Notes under the pieces: model-generated
What the model saw: only the letters and a program-made list of their open reading frames with translations
Told to the model about the DNA's origin: nothing
Database searches by the model: none
Part shown: one piece after another, positions 53,850 to 64,000 of the stretch
Numbering within the stretch: the first letter of the stretch is position 1
How the letters are laid out: each line of letters starts with the position of its first letter
Assembly (NCBI GenBank): GCA_964435115.1
Contig: CAYSYM010000003.1
Location: forward strand, 66,421-130,420
Direction: 5' to 3'
DNA length: 64,000 nucleotides
From: an uncultured Chloroflexota bacterium
GTDB taxonomy: Bacteria; Chloroflexota; UBA6077; CF-72
Position numbers and translations under genes: made by a program

Positions 53850-57185
<3,336 letters not shown>

Positions 57186-57196
57186 GCTGCGCCTCC

Positions 57197-57529
57197 TCAG
57201 CTATCGGGCTCCCGGCCGAGCCGTGCTTGCAGGAATGGGACGTCGTAGTGAACCGTGTCCCAGACCAGATCCCAGTTGACGTTGATGTAGTCGTGCACGA
57301 GGCGGTTCCGCATCCCGACGATATCGGCCCACGGAATATCCGGGTAACGGGCGCGGAATTCGGCGGACAGGCGGCGCGCGGCCTCGCCGACGATCATCAG
57401 CTGACGGACCACCGCGTCCCGCCGGAGGCTGTCGCCGATGAAGCTCGTCTTGTCCAGCCCGCCGACGTACTCCCGGATGAGAGCCAGAGCGTCCAAGATA
57501 TGCGCGCGGTAGACCTCGTCACTCTTCAT
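57197..57529 (-). CDS. hepT: HepT-like HEPN toxin (DUF86)
   Basis: MKSDEVYRAHILDALALIREYV...RNRLVHDY (Rx4HxY). Confidence 0.75.
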   Translation of the reverse strand: MKSDEVYRAHILDALALIREYVGGLDKTSFIGDSLRRDAVVRQLMIVGEAARRLSAEFRARYPDIPWADIVGMRNRLVHDYINVNWDLVWDTVHYDVPFLQARLGREPDS

Positions 57530-57848
57530 ACAGGACGATCCGGTCGGACTCGATATACGGGCGGACATGCCGGCTCAGGCCCTCTTCGGTTGTCAACTCC
57601 ACCGGGTGACCGAGCAGCTCCGACAGCTCGCGCTCCAGGCCGAACCAGCGCAGCCCCAGGGGCGGGCGGCCCTCGCTGGGCCGCAGGCGGAGCAGCAGAT
57701 CGATGTCGCTGTCCGGGCGCTGCTCGCCGCGCGCGAACGAGCCGAACAGCTCGATGCGAGACGCGTACGGCCGCAGCACGGGAACGATTTTCGCGCGGAG
57801 CTCGTCCAGCACCGATTTCGGGGGACCGGTTCGGGCGTTCATGTTCAT
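57519..57848 (-). CDS. mntA: MntA-like nucleotidyltransferase antitoxin
   Basis: LFGSFARGEQRPDSDIDLL (GSxxRG...DxD). 11-nt ATGnnnnnnTGA overlap with hepT; the ATG overlaps the DUF1156 stop as ATGA. Confidence 0.75.
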   Translation of the reverse strand: MNMNARTGPPKSVLDELRAKIVPVLRPYASRIELFGSFARGEQRPDSDIDLLLRLRPSEGRPPLGLRWFGLERELSELLGHPVELTTEEGLSRHVRPYIESDRIVLYEE

Positions 57849-60800
57849 GCGAACAGCTCCGTCTGTGCGGGGCGGTCGGTGCCCGCCCCAGCGGCCAGCC
57901 TGGCGATCTCCGGCCAGGCGACGACCAGACTGTTGTAGGCCAGCGCTTCCTGTGCCCAGCGTTTCCGCTCACAGATGACGTAGAGCCGGTAGGCGAGGTC
58001 CCGCGCCACCTCGCCCAGTCCGCCGACCTTCCCCAGCAGCTCGGCCGCCCCCTGCTCACCGTCCTTCTCCAGCCGGCGGATGAGGTGCTGTGTCACCTCC
58101 CACACCGTCAGGCGCGGGTCCTTGGTGGGGTCCCAGCCGGCCGGCAGCCCCTCACGACCCAGCAGGCGCACCTTGCCGCCCCGCGCCCGTAGGATGCCGG
58201 CATCTTCCAGCACCCGCACAGCGGTGTCCTTGGCCTTCGAGAGCGTCTCGGCCACCCCGTAGGGGCCTTCGGCCACGCCGTAGTGCTCGAACCAAGCGAT
58301 GGCCCAGCGGGTGTGGTTGTCGTACTCGCTCTCCTGCTCGGCCAGCACCTGATCGAGCGCCTGGTTTATGAGCCCCAGCGCGATGCGTACTGAGACGTGC
58401 TCGCCGCTAGCGTCCACAACCTTGGAGTAACGAGAGAACACCGCCATGCCCGGGCCGATCGCTGCCTGGGCTAGGTCAACCGGTGCGATGTTGCCGTGCT
58501 GGAGTTTTCTCAGAGCATCAGGCAGCTCTCTCCTGAGCGCGTCCGTGAACTCGCGTCGTGTGGCGAGCCCGGTGGTCGATGGCCGCGGGCGGCAGACGAG
58601 GACGATGGAGGAGGCGAGCGCGTTAGTGCCGATACCCACGCTCCGTGCTCCGCGCTCGGTCCGCACCGGCCATGTGCCGGTAATCGCAAACCCTGCCTTG
58701 AGCAGGCCTTCCAGCATCGTCTCCCACCCTGTGGAGACAATCACTGTTGAACTGTTGCTGTCCGCACCGTCCTGGTCATCTGCCTCAGCCTGCCTGAAGG
58801 CGTAGAACACGGTCAGCGGGTAATCGGGGTGGCCAGCGGCGCGCATCTGCGCGAACGCTTTGCCCAGTCCCTCCTCGAAGAAACGCTTCGCTGCCTCTTT
58901 GCTACCTCCGAAGCGGTATGGCGTCGCAATGAGCTCCTGTGCCTTGGGTGTGAGGAGCGTGCTGAACAGGTCTGGATAGAGTCTTCCCAGCGAGCGCCGG
59001 AGCCAGACGTAGAAGAAGTCCGCCAGATCTGCATACCCGATATTGTCGTAGTACGGTGGGTCGGTGCAGACGAGTGGGTTCGAGACACTGTCGACAGCAA
59101 CTGTCGCGTCAAGCTGCTTGGCCGTCGCCCTAGCTTGTTTGGCTCTTGGTGCTTCGGCGATGGTCTTCGCCACCCATTCCGTTGCGGCTGTCCAATTCGC
59201 AGTCGATTCGCTGAACGCATTGCATTCAGCAAAATCCCAAGTCATAGGAACTGCTTGTCGAGCAAAGCCATTCCGGATGAACTCGCCACTCTGTGCCCAA
59301 GTCGCAAGTGTGTTCCAGTAATCCACACACTTATCAAGTGCGAATGCCAGATAGGTTGCCACGGCGTCGGCATACGCAGTCGGACCCACGCCGCCGTTGA
59401 CCAACGGTGCGCAGTCATCGGGTAGGCCCGCGGATCTGGCGTCGCGTTGCACCTGCTCTCGGACCTCATCCAGGAGGCTGCTGAAGGTAGTAAGTGCCGC
59501 GAGTTGTCGGGACGTAAAGAGATCGCGATGCTTGGTCATGCCATAGAGCTGCACCCTGAAGCCGAGCGCCTGCTCGGGTAGCTCAGTTTCCGGCGCATCG
59601 GTCGGCTGTGCGTTGGCCGCCGTGCGTTCGTGTTCTTCATTCGGAGCTACATACACGCGCCCCCGCTGGCCCTCGCCCACAATCGCCATGAGCTGAACGC
59701 CCATGCGGCCGGCTTTCCCCTCAGCACGGATGTGGTCGAACGGCACAGGGGCGGTGCAGACGATGCATGTTGCGCCGCGCCGGTTCACCGTGCCGTCGCG
59801 CGGCATCCCCTCACCGGTCCGCACGTCGAAGCGCACCGTCTTGGCTGCCCGGTCCACCACCGGCTCAACCCAGGCTTTCTTCCCCGGTTTGCTCGACAAC
59901 CAGAATGAGCGGACCAGGGGCATCTGGGCGCCACAGGCCGGGTTCGGGCACTTCACCGTCCGCGCCCACAGCCAGGCGATGACCGTAGCCTCGCCGCCCC
60001 CATACTCCTTCGGCAGCTGCACCTTCGGATAGAGGTGGCCAATGCGGCGCTCAGCCTCATCGCGCATCCATTTGCCGTAGTAGCGAACGTCTGCCGCCAG
60101 CCCAGCGGCACCCTTCCAGGTAGGAGGAAATAGGAAATAGGAGGTAGGAGTTAGCGGTGGTCGCGCATCGCGGTCAGGACGACCTCGGTGGTCGCTATTT
60201 ACTATTTTGCTATTTTCTATTTCGCCATTTTCTATTTCCTGTTTTCCTATCTCCTGTCCTCGCGAAAGTTGCGCCGCATCGTCGTCAGCATCCTGCCGAC
60301 CTCGTTCAGCAGGACTCGAAGGCGCTCGGTTTCCGCTGCCGGGAACCAGCCAATCTCCTCGCACAACGTTAGGAATGTCTCCGTCTCCGCCAGCGATCCC
60401 TGCGCGACCGCCAGGAACTGCGCCTTCTCCTTGCCCGACTCCCGCGTCCACCCCTCCGCGATGTTCGCCGGGATCGAGACTGCCGCCCTCGTAATCTGCG
60501 ACCGCATCCCGTAGGTTTCCTCCCGCGGCAGCAACGGAGCCAGCCGGTACACTTCCCTGGCCGCCTCCATCGCCTTCTGCCACACCTTCAACTCCCGGTA
60601 ATGCATCGCTACTTCCTATTTCCTGTCTCCTACTTTCTGGGTTCACCGGCGGGAGGTTGGCGAACTTCGGCGGGATCTCGACCAGCGCCTTGCTGATCAA
60701 CACCGCCACTGGATTGAGGTCGCTCGCGTGCGCCTCCAGGCCGAGACGCTGCGCCTCGAGCGGGATCGAGCCGCCGCCGCAGAAGGGGTCGAGCACCGGC

Positions 60801-61198
60801 GGCGGGTTGCCGCCGGTGGCGGCGTGGATCAGCTCCCGCGCCGTGGTCAGGATCTCCTCGTTGTTGCTGTTCTCCCACGGCACCAGCCGCTCGATGAACT
60901 GGAATAGCTTTCTCCGCCGCTGCTCGCCTACTGGTAGGCTGGCCCACTCCGGACCGCGATCTTCCGGCAGCGGTAGGCGGTCGATGCGCTCGAGCAGCGC
61001 CTGGGGGACGCCCGCCTGGTCGGGATCATCAATCAGCGAGGCGAAGAGCACCGCCCGGCAGGCCGCCAAGGGCCGCCGCGCCCACCACAGGTGCAGCGTG
61101 GAGGGGTGTCCGTGCCGGATGGACTTCTCGCGGGCCGACTCGCGGTTGATCGCCTCCAGCGGCAGCGCTACCTCGATCAGCTTTTGGCGATAGCTCAT
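57845..61198 (-). CDS. DUF1156 domain protein (anti-phage-associated adenine-methyltransferase-like), with an in-frame 171-codon insertion
   Basis: N-terminus MSYRQKLIEVALPLEAINRESAREKSIRHGHPSTLHLWWARRPLAACRAVLF is the canonical DUF1156 start. The reading frame continues through the AT-rich insert at 60122..60634. Confidence 0.8.
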   Translation of the reverse strand: MSYRQKLIEVALPLEAINRESAREKSIRHGHPSTLHLWWARRPLAACRAVLFASLIDDPDQAGVPQALLERIDRLPLPEDRGPEWASLPVGEQRRRKLFQFIERLVPWENSNNEEILTTARELIHAATGGNPPPVLDPFCGGGSIPLEAQRLGLEAHASDLNPVAVLISKALVEIPPKFANLPPVNPESRRQEIGSSDALPGVEGVAEGDGGGQGSVPAGSVAAAGGNLRDAVADYEGGSLDPGEHRGGVDAGVGQGEGAVPGGRAGIAGGDGDIPNVVRGDWLVPGSGNRAPSSPAERGRQDADDDAAQLSRGQEIGKQEIENGEIENSKIVNSDHRGRPDRDARPPLTPTSYFLFPPTWKGAAGLAADVRYYGKWMRDEAERRIGHLYPKVQLPKEYGGGEATVIAWLWARTVKCPNPACGAQMPLVRSFWLSSKPGKKAWVEPVVDRAAKTVRFDVRTGEGMPRDGTVNRRGATCIVCTAPVPFDHIRAEGKAGRMGVQLMAIVGEGQRGRVYVAPNEEHERTAANAQPTDAPETELPEQALGFRVQLYGMTKHRDLFTSRQLAALTTFSSLLDEVREQVQRDARSAGLPDDCAPLVNGGVGPTAYADAVATYLAFALDKCVDYWNTLATWAQSGEFIRNGFARQAVPMTWDFAECNAFSESTANWTAATEWVAKTIAEAPRAKQARATAKQLDATVAVDSVSNPLVCTDPPYYDNIGYADLADFFYVWLRRSLGRLYPDLFSTLLTPKAQELIATPYRFGGSKEAAKRFFEEGLGKAFAQMRAAGHPDYPLTVFYAFRQAEADDQDGADSNSSTVIVSTGWETMLEGLLKAGFAITGTWPVRTERGARSVGIGTNALASSIVLVCRPRPSTTGLATRREFTDALRRELPDALRKLQHGNIAPVDLAQAAIGPGMAVFSRYSKVVDASGEHVSVRIALGLINQALDQVLAEQESEYDNHTRWAIAWFEHYGVAEGPYGVAETLSKAKDTAVRVLEDAGILRARGGKVRLLGREGLPAGWDPTKDPRLTVWEVTQHLIRRLEKDGEQGAAELLGKVGGLGEVARDLAYRLYVICERKRWAQEALAYNSLVVAWPEIARLAAGAGTDRPAQTELFA
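60122..60634 (-). mobile_element. In-frame insertion element (about 513 bp) with terminal repeats, carrying a four-helix-bundle protein gene
   Basis: AT-rich relative to its surroundings. The left end is (GGAAATA)n-like ggaggaaataggaaataggaggtaggag. An internal (CTATTTY)8 tandem repeat forms an inverted partner. CTATTTCCTGT..TCC direct repeats sit at 60228-60260 and 60617-60634 and flank the 4HB ORF. Host-frame translation is low-complexity (QEIGKQEIENGEIENSKIVNS...). Confidence 0.5.
60247..60606 (-). CDS. Four-helix-bundle protein (TIGR02436; 23S rRNA intervening-sequence protein / Avd-like family)
   Basis: MHYRELKVWQKAMEAAREVYRL...ETYGMRSQITRAAVSIPANIAEGWTRESGKEKAQFLAVAQGSLAETETFL matches the family pattern (LxVWQKA...YGLTSQLRRAAVSIPSNIAEG...QFL.IA.GSL.ELET). 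119 aa; GGAAG RBS. Confidence 0.75.
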   Translation of the reverse strand: MHYRELKVWQKAMEAAREVYRLAPLLPREETYGMRSQITRAAVSIPANIAEGWTRESGKEKAQFLAVAQGSLAETETFLTLCEEIGWFPAAETERLRVLLNEVGRMLTTMRRNFREDRR

Positions 61199-61253: not shown

Positions 61254-61643
61254 TCACAACCCAAGCTGCCGGCGGACGAAGCCGACCAGGTCGCGGGCGA
61301 GCTGCAGGGCCTGCTCGGCGTCGGCCACTGGCGGCGCAAGCGGCCCACCCGGATAGCGGAATTCGGTCGCCAGTGGGGTCAAGATGCGGGCCGTGGTCGC
61401 GAATTGACTGAACTCCGGCTGGATCGCCTCGCACAGCGGGAGCACGAGGTTCAGGTTATGTGTCAGCGGGAAGGTGCGATCGTGGGCGGCGAGGAACGCC
61501 TTCAACGCCTTCTCGGCGGCCTGCTGCGCATGATAGGCGACCATATCCGGGAGCGGCACTGCCAGCAGGGCCTCCGCCGCCTCGAGGTCGCGCTCCGCCC
61601 GCGCCAGCCAATCCTGTGCCTCGCGCAGCGCTTCAGGCCGCAT
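61254..61643 (-). CDS. HEPN domain protein
   Basis: Start MRPEALREAQDWLARAERDL...; typical HEPN (AYHAQQAAEKALKAFL). 11-nt overlap with the upstream MNT gene. Confidence 0.6.
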   Translation of the reverse strand: MRPEALREAQDWLARAERDLEAAEALLAVPLPDMVAYHAQQAAEKALKAFLAAHDRTFPLTHNLNLVLPLCEAIQPEFSQFATTARILTPLATEFRYPGGPLAPPVADAEQALQLARDLVGFVRRQLGL

Positions 61644-62010
61644 AGAGCAGCCTCCCCTCGCGGAGTATGGTCCCGGGCAGGGACGCGACCGCTGGCGCCC
61701 GCGCGTCGAACTCCGCACGGGTCATGAAGACGACCTCCAGGGGAAGCCTGAGTGGGGTGAGCTCCGCGTAGGCCGCCGAGGCCAGACGATACGTGGGCTC
61801 CGCCGCGGCCGGCACAACGACGAGCAGATCGATATCACTGTCCGGCCCGGCCGTCCCGCGCGCCTGCGAGCCGAAGACGTAAATCCGCTCGGGGCGAAAC
61901 GCTTCCACCAGTCGCTGCACCGCGCGCGCCAGCTCCTCCACCTGGGTCGGCGGCAGGTGGGGCAGCTCGCTCCGGATGTGTCCCTCGAATCCTCCTATCT
62001 CACTGCTCAC
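61633..62010 (-). CDS. Minimal nucleotidyltransferase (MNT) domain protein
   Basis: IYVFGSQARGTAGPDSDIDLLVVV. The GTG start at 62010 overlaps the helicase stop as GTGA, with a GGGGAGAG RBS. The 5' part of the 223-aa ORF is rejected. Confidence 0.65.
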   Translation of the reverse strand: MSSEIGGFEGHIRSELPHLPPTQVEELARAVQRLVEAFRPERIYVFGSQARGTAGPDSDIDLLVVVPAAAEPTYRLASAAYAELTPLRLPLEVVFMTRAEFDARAPAVASLPGTILREGRLLYAA

Positions 62011-64000
62011 TGCTCTCCCCTCGCTCCTCGATGGCAGCGGATCAGCTCGGCGATGTCGAAGATCACGCCCGTGGCCGCGAAGTCGGGCTCGCGCTGGAAC
62101 GGACAGGATAGGTACGTCGGCTGGCTCGCCTGGTCGTCGGCCACCTCGACGAGAGCCAGGAGGAAATCCTCGGGCTTGTTGAGCGCCGTCAGGATCTCGT
62201 TCTTCGTCACGGTGACCGTCCGCGCCCCGGCGGCGCGGCCCTTGACCTCGATGAAGCGCAGCTTCCCCGTGCCGGGGATGCGCGACTCGACGTCGTAGCC
62301 GCACTTGAGGGCGCTCACGTCGCGCGGCTCGAACCCCAGCCGTCGCTCGGCGTCCAGGACCGCCTCCATCGCGAACCGCTCGACGCGCGCTGTCTCTCGC
62401 GCGACCTCGTCAGGTTGCGGTGCTGGCTGCTCGCCCTTCAGGCGGGCCAGAAGCCCCGCCGGGACCACCAGCGCCCCGCCGATCGCCACCGGTGGCAGCG
62501 GCGACAGGCGGCGCTCCTGCTCGAGCTCCTCCAGCCGCTTCTGCAGCCGCGCCTGCAGCTCGTCCGCCCGCTGGCGGGCGCGGGCCGAGTTGAGGCGCGG
62601 CGTCCTGCCGGCCTCCTCCTGCGCCCTCAGCTCGAGGGCGCGGTGGTCCCAGTAGATGATCTCCTTGGTCAGCCGGTCCTGCACCGCCGCCATCGTCTTG
62701 GCGACCAGCTCCTCCTTGCGGCGCCGCACCTCCTCCAAGTGCGGCGGCACGAGCTCCTCCACCGCGTAGGCAAGCGCCTGTTGCTCCAGGCCGGGGCCTG
62801 AACCCGTCGAAGGGTCCTCGCGCAGCCAGGACGCGTCGAGCAGCGGCTCAACCAATAGCTGCTCGTCCTCCGCCAGCGGCCGGTAGTCCAGGTAGGGGGC
62901 GTAGCCTGCCGAGCGTACCGCTCCATGCTGGTCGATCTCGACGAACTGCATCTGGCGCGAGACCACGCGCCGGTTGCCGGCGCCGTCGGTGCGCGCGTCC
63001 TGGATGCCGTGCTCCAGGTAGAACAGCGCCCGCGCCTCCTCGCCCGAGTCGTCGGGGTCCACCAGCACCGCGCCCCGCTTCGGCAGGTCCCGATACCGCT
63101 CCAGGATCAGGTCGATCGTCGCGTCGAGGAGCGGGTGGCCGGGGCAGACGAAGGCGGCGAGCGGCTTCCCGGGGACGCTGATCAGCGCTTTCTCGAAGGT
63201 GATCCGCTCGTAGCGTGGCAGCACCGGGTCCCGCGTGCCGATCAGCCGGGAGCGGTTCCGGACGGCGGCCGGCACGTGCGTGATCTCGTAGCGCTTCGGC
63301 TCGCGCTCCCGCACCGTGCCGCCGAGGAGCTTGAACGCTTCCAGGAAGAAGCTGGCGATGAAGTGCGGCTGCAGGCGGCGCGCCTCGGCCCGCTCCATGT
63401 CCTCGCGGATCGCGCGCACCTGGGCCGCGTCCAGCGAGTCGCGCGCCAGCGCCCGTTCCTCGAGCAGCTCCTGCAGGTGCTCCCGGTCGAGGGCGTCCTC
63501 CACCACCCGCGTGAGGTGTGCCCGCACCTCCGGTTGATCGCCGTAGCGAACCGCCTCGATGAGCAGCTCGCGCAGCGGGCGGCTCTCGAACGTCAGCTTG
63601 CCGAGGATGTCGAAGACCTGGCCGCCCAGGGCCTTCCGCTCCTCCTCCAGCTTGTGCAGCAGCGTGTGGTAGACCTCGCCCTCGCGCGTCTCAGCGGCCA
63701 CGAGGTTCCAGAGGTGGCAGACCTCGGTCTGGCCGATGCGGTGGATGCGGCCGAAGCGCTGCTCGATGCGGTTCGGGTTCCAGGGCAGGTCGTAGTTCAC
63801 CATCAGGTGAGCGCGCTGGAGGTTGATCCCTTCGCCGGCGGCGTCGGTGGCCACCAGCACCAGCACATCTCTGTCCTGGGTGAACGCCTCCTGGGCCTTG
63901 CGGCGCTCCTCGCGCAGCAGGCCGCCGTGGATGGTGACCACCGCCTCCGGGATGCCCAGCAGGGCGCGGATGCGGTCGGCCAGGTAGTTCAGGGTGTCGC
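62007..64000 (-). CDS. SNF2-family helicase C-terminal half with a DUF3883 C-terminal domain; 5' end beyond the window
   Basis: Helicase C motifs (VLVATDAAGEGINLQRAHLMVNYDLPWNPNRIEQRFGRIHRIGQ), then long coiled coils, then a C-terminal RFIEVKGRAAGARTVTVTKNE...DFLLALVEV (DUF3883-like). Confidence 0.7.
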   Translation of the reverse strand, partial: DTLNYLADRIRALLGIPEAVVTIHGGLLREERRKAQEAFTQDRDVLVLVATDAAGEGINLQRAHLMVNYDLPWNPNRIEQRFGRIHRIGQTEVCHLWNLVAAETREGEVYHTLLHKLEEERKALGGQVFDILGKLTFESRPLRELLIEAVRYGDQPEVRAHLTRVVEDALDREHLQELLEERALARDSLDAAQVRAIREDMERAEARRLQPHFIASFFLEAFKLLGGTVREREPKRYEITHVPAAVRNRSRLIGTRDPVLPRYERITFEKALISVPGKPLAAFVCPGHPLLDATIDLILERYRDLPKRGAVLVDPDDSGEEARALFYLEHGIQDARTDGAGNRRVVSRQMQFVEIDQHGAVRSAGYAPYLDYRPLAEDEQLLVEPLLDASWLREDPSTGSGPGLEQQALAYAVEELVPPHLEEVRRRKEELVAKTMAAVQDRLTKEIIYWDHRALELRAQEEAGRTPRLNSARARQRADELQARLQKRLEELEQERRLSPLPPVAIGGALVVPAGLLARLKGEQPAPQPDEVARETARVERFAMEAVLDAERRLGFEPRDVSALKCGYDVESRIPGTGKLRFIEVKGRAAGARTVTVTKNEILTALNKPEDFLLALVEVADDQASQPTYLSCPFQREPDFAATGVIFDIAELIRCHRGARGEQ

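Follow-up and report, generated by a model that had tools for sequence, protein, structure and literature searches.

Architecture of a cassette nested in hmaB

The DNA analyzed here is a 64-kb stretch (the window) from an uncultured Chloroflexota bacterium. It contains an Hma defense operon whose DUF1156 methylase gene, hmaB, harbors a cassette of ca. 0.5 kb with a second, overlapping gene for a four-helix-bundle (4HB) protein. The operon consists of hmaA, a nucleotidyltransferase (NTase)/HEPN pair, hmaB, an NTase/HepT pair and hmaC, and was recognized as Hma by the presence of the HmaA helicase, the HmaB DUF1156 methylase and the HmaC DUF499 ATPase in one operon (PADLOC). All the features of the hma locus and of the cassette are on the minus strand and are as follows.

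57845 to 61198, minus strand: hmaB, DUF1156-type DNA methylase and host of the cassette; a single continuous open reading frame (ORF) of 1117 codons with an ATG start
60116 to 60640, minus strand: whole cassette; the base of its stem overlaps the host codons CCA (Pro of NPES) and TGG (Trp of W-K-G)
60609 to 60640, minus strand: R1, the 5' purine-rich arm, made of ca. 7-nt units (GAAAGTA GGAGACA GGAAATA GGAAGTA)
60247 to 60606, minus strand: 4HB gene, 119 codons in host frame +1, with its ATG at 60606; S23p or "23S rRNA intervening sequence protein" family
60192 to 60262, minus strand: R2, a second purine-rich arm with 15-nt periodic repeats; its host-frame reading is QEIGKQEIENGEIENSKIVNS
60148 to 60191, minus strand: spacer, a GC-rich loop that separates R2 from Y and folds internally into a small hairpin (from the fold and the sequence)
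60116 to 60147, minus strand: Y, the 3' pyrimidine-rich arm CTACCTCCTATTTCCTATTTCCTCCTACCTGG, complementary to both R1 and R2
62007 to 64000, minus strand: hmaA, SNF2-type helicase with NOV_C, C-terminal part, the ORF remaining open past the window end (Pfam; PADLOC HmaA, E = 4e-261)
53850 to 57185, minus strand: hmaC, HEPN_Swt1 and DUF499 ATPase (Pfam; PADLOC HmaC, E = 0)

Most of the best HmaB homologs have 925 to 950 amino acids and, at the site of the insert, only a variable linker of 8 to 15 residues. Alignment with these empty orthologs places the insert at approximately 60122 to 60634 (ca. 0.5 kb or 170 codons), between "PVNPESR" and TWKGAAGLAADVRYYG ("W-K-G-A-A-G-L-A-A-D-V-R-Y-Y-G"). 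The PADLOC HmaB profile matched in two stretches (E = 0) with a break at ca. 210/211, the same point as the gap in the ortholog alignment. Pfam detected DUF1156 (E = 2.9e-25), and a scan of the full HmaB gave this domain and methylase motifs, nothing else. The host frame is free of stops across the whole insert. The uninterrupted DUF1156 frame through ca. 513 bp that had been read in a first-pass annotation, made from the sequence alone, was therefore confirmed. The insertion that it placed at residues 237 to 408 was also recovered by the homolog alignment, but this numbering fits an ORF starting at a GTG, and counted from the ATG the insert occupies approximately residues 190 to 360. DUF1156 orthologs of similar length do formally exist, but they carry the same cassette and not a linker. 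The AlphaFold2 model of HmaB, weak overall (mean predicted local distance difference test [pLDDT], 52.9), shows residues 192 to 362 as coil with pLDDT values of 22 to 26.

R1 and Y form a terminal inverted repeat of 32 nt with 81% complementarity (repeat search). In the minimum-free-energy fold, the R1:Y pair closes the whole element (-239 kcal/mol, z = -3.7), in agreement with the long stem that had been predicted from the inverted pair. Alternatively, Y can fold locally onto R2 (-43.3 kcal/mol, z = -4.4, for this hairpin). Within R1, immediately ahead of the 4HB ATG, is a Shine-Dalgarno (SD)-like AGGA. The direct repeats first thought to bracket the insertion do exist; they correspond to the two purine arms, R1 and R2, and not to a target-site duplication. 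Motif GGAAATAG occurs four times in the window, always within the cassette (0.14 occurrences expected), and the cassette itself is found as a single copy within the 64 kb. As for the AT-richness originally attributed to the segment, it is confined to the arms and R2 (GC content of 0.52 to 0.53 over positions 60100 to 60400), but the 4HB ORF has a GC content of ca. 65%. No promoter-like or terminator-like site was detected inside the cassette. An Rfam E-value scan of the region found no rRNA and no intron family, the sole match being a sub-threshold CcsR1 on the opposite strand (E = 0.19).

The nested protein belongs to the S23p family

The existence of a complete 119-amino-acid four-helix-bundle gene in another frame of the same strand was borne out by all the comparisons. 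Its product belongs to PF05635 (E = 3.8e-36, 124 bits for a cutoff of 33.8) and to TIGR02436 (116.6 bits for a cutoff of 24), and residues 4 to 113 align with PDB 2GSC (XCC0516, a solved four-helix bundle) with an E value of 8.4e-20. The affiliation with Avd and the diversity-generating retroelements (DGRs) suggested by the first-pass annotation had to be abandoned. The protein scored 33.7 bits against the Avd equivalog NF033474 (cutoff, 80) and 26.7 bits against bAvd PF22296 (cutoff, 40). No reverse transcriptase and no template or variable repeats were found within ca. 6 kb, where all the flanking genes are hmaA, hmaB or hmaC or toxin-antitoxin genes (NTase-HEPN pairs).

Distribution of the cassette among bacteria

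The same site carries an insert in six further HmaB proteins (1053 to 1276 amino acids), whose DNA contains an intact 4HB gene in host frame +1 between arms that differ widely in sequence. Since the sample at the protein level is biased by gene calling, the DNA of the GTDB species representatives was searched using the 4HB protein as an anchor. This recovered 521 loci, of which the best 80 (69 to 87% amino acid identity), a set skewed to relatives of the nested queries, were analyzed and classified by tblastn with the window Hma proteins. These 80 loci span Proteobacteria, Chloroflexota, Deinococcota, Planctomycetota, Gemmatimonadota, Cyanobacteria, Spirochaetales and others.

The cassette was nested in hmaB in 40 of the 80, with hmaB flanks on both sides and at the same site as in the window. 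Another eight were nested in hmaA, seven of them between "MLYVE" and "YAPYLDYRPL" and one ca. 15 residues further on; both of these hmaA sites are empty in the window, where the empty site reads MQFVEIDQHGAVRSAGYAPYLDYRPL. The hmaA-nested copies include that of Lamprocystis purpurea DSM 4197 (L017), a cultured bacterium, and the hmaB-nested ones those of Candidatus Viridilinea mediisalina (L046) and Candidatus Chloroploca (L038), both available as enrichments. The remaining 32 were not nested: one (L078) lies between an empty hmaB and hmaC, and about 30 are located elsewhere, 50 to 110 nt from housekeeping genes. These free copies mostly have the same purine/pyrimidine arm families, with ca. 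7-nt AGGANNN units (GGAAATA, GGAGTGA, GGACGTA, GGAACGA). Four metagenome contigs, retrieved by a 29-nt string within the 4HB gene, all had the cassette nested in hmaB, and a scan of viral contigs for the 4HB gene gave no relative. A protein database search with a profile of the host-frame peptides yielded a single hmaB fragment at E ≤ 1e-5; the low complexity of these peptides and the size of the database probably account for this. Thus, the cassette (arms plus gene) is a discrete unit that is found nested in hmaB, in hmaA, between hma genes or in intergenic DNA.

Some free copies have a different organization. Those from Caldilineaceae (L040, L043, L047, L048, L054, L056, L059 and L064) apparently occupy one syntenic position, 3' of an SBP_bac_5 gene and 5' of an ORF beginning MTVYIIQRVMRMIP, with a complete hairpin at each side of the 4HB gene instead of one split arm pair. 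The copies L023, L031, L036, L068 and L081 lie between long tandem arrays rich in purines, and a pyrimidine arm is not evident; upstream of L036, the -1 frame stays open over 757 nt, making another host gene possible.

The hmaB genes contain other inserts as well. An IS200-like Y1 transposase (PF01797) read in the host frame is nested in the hmaB of L007:3001-6831 (P0103) and of P0033, bounded by perfect 28-bp inverted repeats CCTGGGAGCGAGGGCGTCCCGCCCTCG that resemble repetitive extragenic palindromic (REP) sequences. This element is at the same linker as the 4HB cassette in P0033 and at a second site in P0103, a gene that also has the 4HB cassette. Extra short in-frame inserts composed of the same purine-repeat units as the arms (for example, "...EIENRKQEIGNRKQEIGNR" and "GGGMRNESGGVRNED...HSSLLS") are found at other positions of hmaB, in L013, L060 and L062 (ca. 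150 codons past the cassette) and in proteins P0014 and P0059; they are hairpin-type elements without an ORF. An in-frame deletion remnant, consisting of R1, the first 16 4HB codons (MHYRELTVWQKAMEAA) and the end of Y, was detected in L008:541-3519 (P0071). The window hmaB is represented in another assembly by protein cluster P0001 (740 amino acids, 100% identical), in which only the part downstream of the cassette was called. Apart from the cassette, the window hmaB has a region (58900 to 59400) where the GC content falls to 0.54 to 0.58; orthologs align normally there, so it is not an insert, and it may be a recombined variable module. The two NTase/HEPN (HepT-type) toxin-antitoxin-like pairs interleaved among the hma genes of the window (57197 to 57848 and 61254 to 62304, minus strand) occupy slots that are filled differently in other hma loci, by SLFN/AlbA_2, GmrSD, Macro or GIY-YIG.

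An open host frame and a constrained nested gene

A clear signal of selection came from the reading frames. All 48 nested copies, and the four metagenome contigs, have no stop in the host frame, which is the -1 frame of the 4HB gene. Among the free copies, 27 of the 32 have at least one stop in this frame (mean of about 2.4), a difference with a Fisher P value of 3e-17 when relatedness is ignored. Stops are always present in the +1 frame of the 4HB gene. The same is true of the arms: the 60 nt of the purine arm ahead of the 4HB start contained no host-frame stop in any of 44 nested copies, for 1.2 to 1.8 stops in the other frames. A perfect array of heptamers such as (GGAAATA)n or (GAGGAGT)n would contain TAG or TGA in each frame every 21 nt, and the nested arms depart from perfect heptamers exactly where the host frame would gain a stop. 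The window is a good illustration, since R1 has three TAG triplets, all out of the host phase, and the unit with the in-phase junction reads CAG instead; the seven stop triplets of R2 are also out of phase (10 of 10 for both arms).

Insert lengths follow the same rule. Measured between host anchors, they range from 423 to 561 nt, and every one, as had been remarked for the window copy, is a multiple of three, even where the arms have expanded, which they do in blocks of 15, 21, 45 or 63 nt. The host ORF is otherwise intact, or reaches the contig end, in 34 of the 40 hmaB and seven of the eight hmaA genes. The broken hosts (L033 for hmaA; L014, L063, L044, L009, L057 and L073 for hmaB) owe their condition to stops in an expanded Y arm, frameshifts, truncations or an assembly gap, and the host frame within the 4HB gene is still open in them.

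Amino acid constraint acts in the 4HB frame. The differences at its codon positions 1, 2 and 3 are 0.22, 0.15 and 0.50, respectively, and the mean identity is 74% in the 4HB frame versus 42% in the host frame, the latter being the level of the closed +1 frame. The start ATG is conserved in 31 of 44 nested copies and an SD-like motif in 39 of 44, and the protein is 70 to 90% conserved across phyla. Selection keeps the host frame open in the nested copies, and both patterns are most simply read as translation of HmaB across the cassette, which would form a loop without sequence constraint, with the 4HB protein as a real product.

Relationship between the cassette and its host gene

The window hmaB has 72% identity to its closest orthologs, which are empty, and 59 to 63% to the filled ones. 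Across 231 pairs of nested loci, host and 4HB identities were uncorrelated (r = -0.20). The comparison of the window copy with L012 provides a good example, with 87% identity for the 4HB protein and 57% for the host, and with a four-fold-site identity higher in the cassette than in the host. In a neighbor-joining tree of the 4HB proteins, copies nested in hmaB, copies nested in hmaA and free copies are interleaved, and the arm family follows the 4HB clade and not the genomic context. By these comparisons, the history of the cassette is decoupled from that of the host gene.

We also examined the arms for signs of selection on pairing. R1 pairs with its cognate Y at -41.9 kcal/mol versus -32.9 kcal/mol for non-cognate arms, and the cognate Y ranked first in seven of 24 cases. 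Arm mismatches were distributed among 93 G.U-compatible, 94 antisense-compatible and 90 transversions, i.e., there was no wobble bias on the sense strand. Altogether, the arms look more like decaying DNA inverted repeats than like a stem under selection at the RNA level. Metagenomes were searched with a flank-gap-flank pattern for the unoccupied form of this same hmaB, and there were no matches, so the junctions are placed approximately and no target-site duplication was identified.

Comparison with known elements

Intervening sequences (IVSs) of rRNA were described around 1990. Those of 23S rRNA are located in helix 9, 25 or 45, and versions with an ORF for an S23p protein are found in Coxiella burnetii, Leptospira, Brucella and others. 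The hma cassette has much in common with them: a size of ca. 0.4 to 0.75 kb, terminal inverted repeats forming a long stem that encloses the element (here R1:Y), a single PF05635 ORF, no mobility enzyme and a patchy distribution across phyla. The IVS of C. burnetii has a 28-bp terminal inverted-repeat stem, an AG-rich SD, no mobility gene and, just 5' of the S23p start, tandem heptamer repeats in variable number, and it is removed by RNase III (PMC4990558). An AG-rich SD and variable-copy heptamer-type repeats directly before the start are also what the R1 units provide in the cassette. There are also differences. Instead of an rRNA helix, the cassette occupies a protein-coding gene or intergenic DNA, and the frame of the host gene is kept open, implying translation through the insert and not RNase III excision. 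Its ORF is intact and under purifying selection, whereas that of Coxiella is decaying and apparently untranslated. The proposal of an IVS-like, possibly mobile 4HB cassette in a DUF1156 gene is supported by the 48 nested copies, the free copies and the Coxiella-like arms; what the first-pass annotation said of the stem stands for the design of the arms, but RNase III excision as the main fate is disfavored by the open frame and the lack of G.U bias.

Rickettsia palindromic elements (RPEs; cited in PMC1779305 and PMC10969869) are also palindromic, selfish and in frame, adding a translated extra peptide at permissive sites. RPEs are 100 to 150 bp long and have no gene, while the cassette has an intact overlapping gene with ca. 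119 dual-coding codons and is found across many phyla, concentrated in one defense system. It shares with RPE-like miniature inverted-repeat transposable elements the insertion of an inverted-repeat element in a coding gene with preservation of the host frame, but it carries a gene where their cargo is non-coding, is present once in the 64-kb window where they have multiple copies per genome, and is not of the RPE family. REP elements, the REP doublets that form hairpins (REPINs) and the REP-associated tyrosine transposases (RAYTs; IS200-like Y1 transposases) are likewise bounded by hairpins or inverted repeats, occur in intergenic DNA and could be mobilized in trans, and a RAYT-like gene with 28-bp REP-like inverted repeats is found in frame in the hmaB of L007 and P0033. 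Their cargo is a transposase and not a 4HB protein, and the arms of the cassette are tandem ca. 7-nt purine units and not REP palindromes. Avd of the DGRs shares the superfamily fold, a four-helix bundle which, in relatives of known structure, assembles into a pentameric barrel, but the cassette protein falls short of the Avd equivalog and bAvd cutoffs, and neither a reverse transcriptase nor template or variable repeats lie nearby. Inteins resemble the cassette as selfish insertions that keep the host reading frame; unlike them, the cassette has no Hint or homing-endonuclease domain, encodes its protein in a different frame and gives no sign of protein splicing. The literature searched (PF05635, S23p and Hma/DUF1156), including a 2026 DUF499/Hma analysis, contained no description of nested 4HB cassettes.

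Interpretation and alternatives

The feature is real and not a product of chance. The explanation that we favor, and consider fairly probable, involves a 4HB cassette of the IVS type, likely to be both mobile and selfish, which HmaB tolerates within a permissive loop since it leaves the host frame open. It lies in the variable linker that follows the S-adenosylmethionine-binding region of HmaB, and ribosomes would translate HmaB straight through it, adding ca. 170 low-complexity, probably disordered residues. Translation of the 4HB protein would start, on the same mRNA, at the SD and ATG of its gene, in the +1 frame. At the DNA level, the cassette would spread with the arms acting as terminal inverted repeats, and it may also pass between hmaB alleles by recombination via the conserved flanks. 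Only copies with an open host frame would persist in working defense genes, as expected of a tolerated selfish element and not of a part of Hma.

Several points weigh against this explanation. Pfam detected no transposase, endonuclease or reverse transcriptase gene in the cassette, and we found neither a target-site duplication nor a near-identical filled and empty pair, so the case for mobility rests on the phylogenetic incongruence and the multiple sites. The 4HB tree was built on 119 residues and is weakly resolved, and recombination among hma genes could explain part of the incongruence and of the multiple sites. Most loci are from metagenome-assembled genomes, and the nested copies are phylogenetically non-independent. 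As many as 52 of the 84 DNA-anchored loci are in hma genes, possibly more than the query bias would produce. The conservation of the 4HB protein across phyla speaks for a genuine function, and a role in the Hma system may be part of it. Finally, both the read-through of the cassette and the translation of the 4HB gene are inferred from signatures of selection.

Such a role would make the cassette a domesticated part of Hma, with the 4HB protein serving Hma as an accessory subunit or regulator, much as Avd serves the reverse transcriptase of DGRs, its translation coupled to that of HmaB by the R1:Y and R2:Y pairing, and the whole kept because defense benefits. The 48 nested copies and the one intergenic hma copy among the 80 closest relatives fit this idea, as do the highly conserved 4HB sequence, the SD and start located within an arm that can pair with Y (which pairs with R1 or R2), and a promoterless cassette that invariably lies on the strand of its host. 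However, the cassette is absent from ca. 95% of the best hmaB orthologs, among them those closest to the window gene (72% identity), and equally conserved copies with the same arms lie beside housekeeping genes with no hma genes nearby. Besides, the 23S rRNA IVSs share the design, no PADLOC model matches the module, and the 80-locus set is biased to relatives of the nested queries. Domestication seems possible but unlikely to us, and the regulatory interruption of the defense system raised in the first-pass annotation found no support. A true IVS acting at the RNA level, in which RNase III would cut the R1:Y stem and fragment the hmaB mRNA, leading to down-regulation or to a split gene, is quite doubtful. 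It would agree with the long terminal stem predicted and with the RNase III excision of rRNA IVSs of the same design that bear an ORF (PMC4990558), but not with the open host frame and the length multiple of three in every nested copy, nor with the lack of wobble bias in the arm mismatches (93 versus 94). If the mRNA were cut but not religated, its 5' piece would lack a stop and its 3' piece a start, and there would be no selective reason for an open, in-phase host frame. A partial IVS-like processing of the hmaB mRNA keeps a low probability and is, with domestication, one of the two main rivals of the favored explanation.

We give very little credence to the absence of any element, in which case the segment would be a low-complexity linker peculiar to the lineage, its ORF arising by chance, or else a pseudogene in decay. 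The host-frame peptide is indeed of low complexity, and alternative frames are frequently open in high-GC DNA, but the 4HB protein is a strong PF05635/TIGR02436 member with constraint in its frame, the same unit of arms and gene is found free elsewhere, and the host ORF is full length in 34 of 40 hmaB and seven of eight hmaA genes. Equally remote is an Avd of a DGR, or an intein or intron removed after transcription or translation, in spite of the weak similarity to the Avd models and of an insert that is in frame as inteins are. To the sub-cutoff Avd scores and the lack of a reverse transcriptase or template repeat in the operon must be added that the host protein has no Hint or endonuclease domain, that the 4HB gene is in another frame and that there is no Rfam intron family; excision would also make the open frame unnecessary. 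Translational bypassing was rejected, as it would need no open frame.

Beyond the favored explanation of a tolerated, probably selfish cassette, a wider and rather speculative version can be put forward, which we consider unlikely at present. All the S23p 4HB cassettes, rRNA IVSs included, would be one widespread autonomous mobile class, in which the 4HB protein, product of the only gene, would act on its own heptamer arms (as hairpin DNA or RNA) to move or maintain the element. The hma-nested lineage would have specialized, with ca. 120 dual-coding codons, in living inside defense genes that travel horizontally, and the R1:Y and R2:Y pairings might gate the translation of HmaB or of the 4HB protein.

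Implications

The cassette presents the design of an rRNA IVS outside rRNA, with an intact and strongly conserved ORF and in many phyla. This gives a comparative handle on what selection keeps, be it the 4HB protein, the complementarity of the arms or the open host frame. It is also a clear natural case in bacteria of long dual coding (ca. 120 codons), where the sequence is selected in one frame and only openness in the other. There is a consequence for annotation, because gene callers fuse the cassette into a "DUF1156 protein" of 1050 to 1140 amino acids or may divide the host gene, P0001 being an example, and the nested 4HB gene was uncalled in all the loci fetched. For the Hma system, the cassette marks permissive insertion sites in HmaB and HmaA, and it indicates that defense genes can house small selfish cassettes, a RAYT-like one included.

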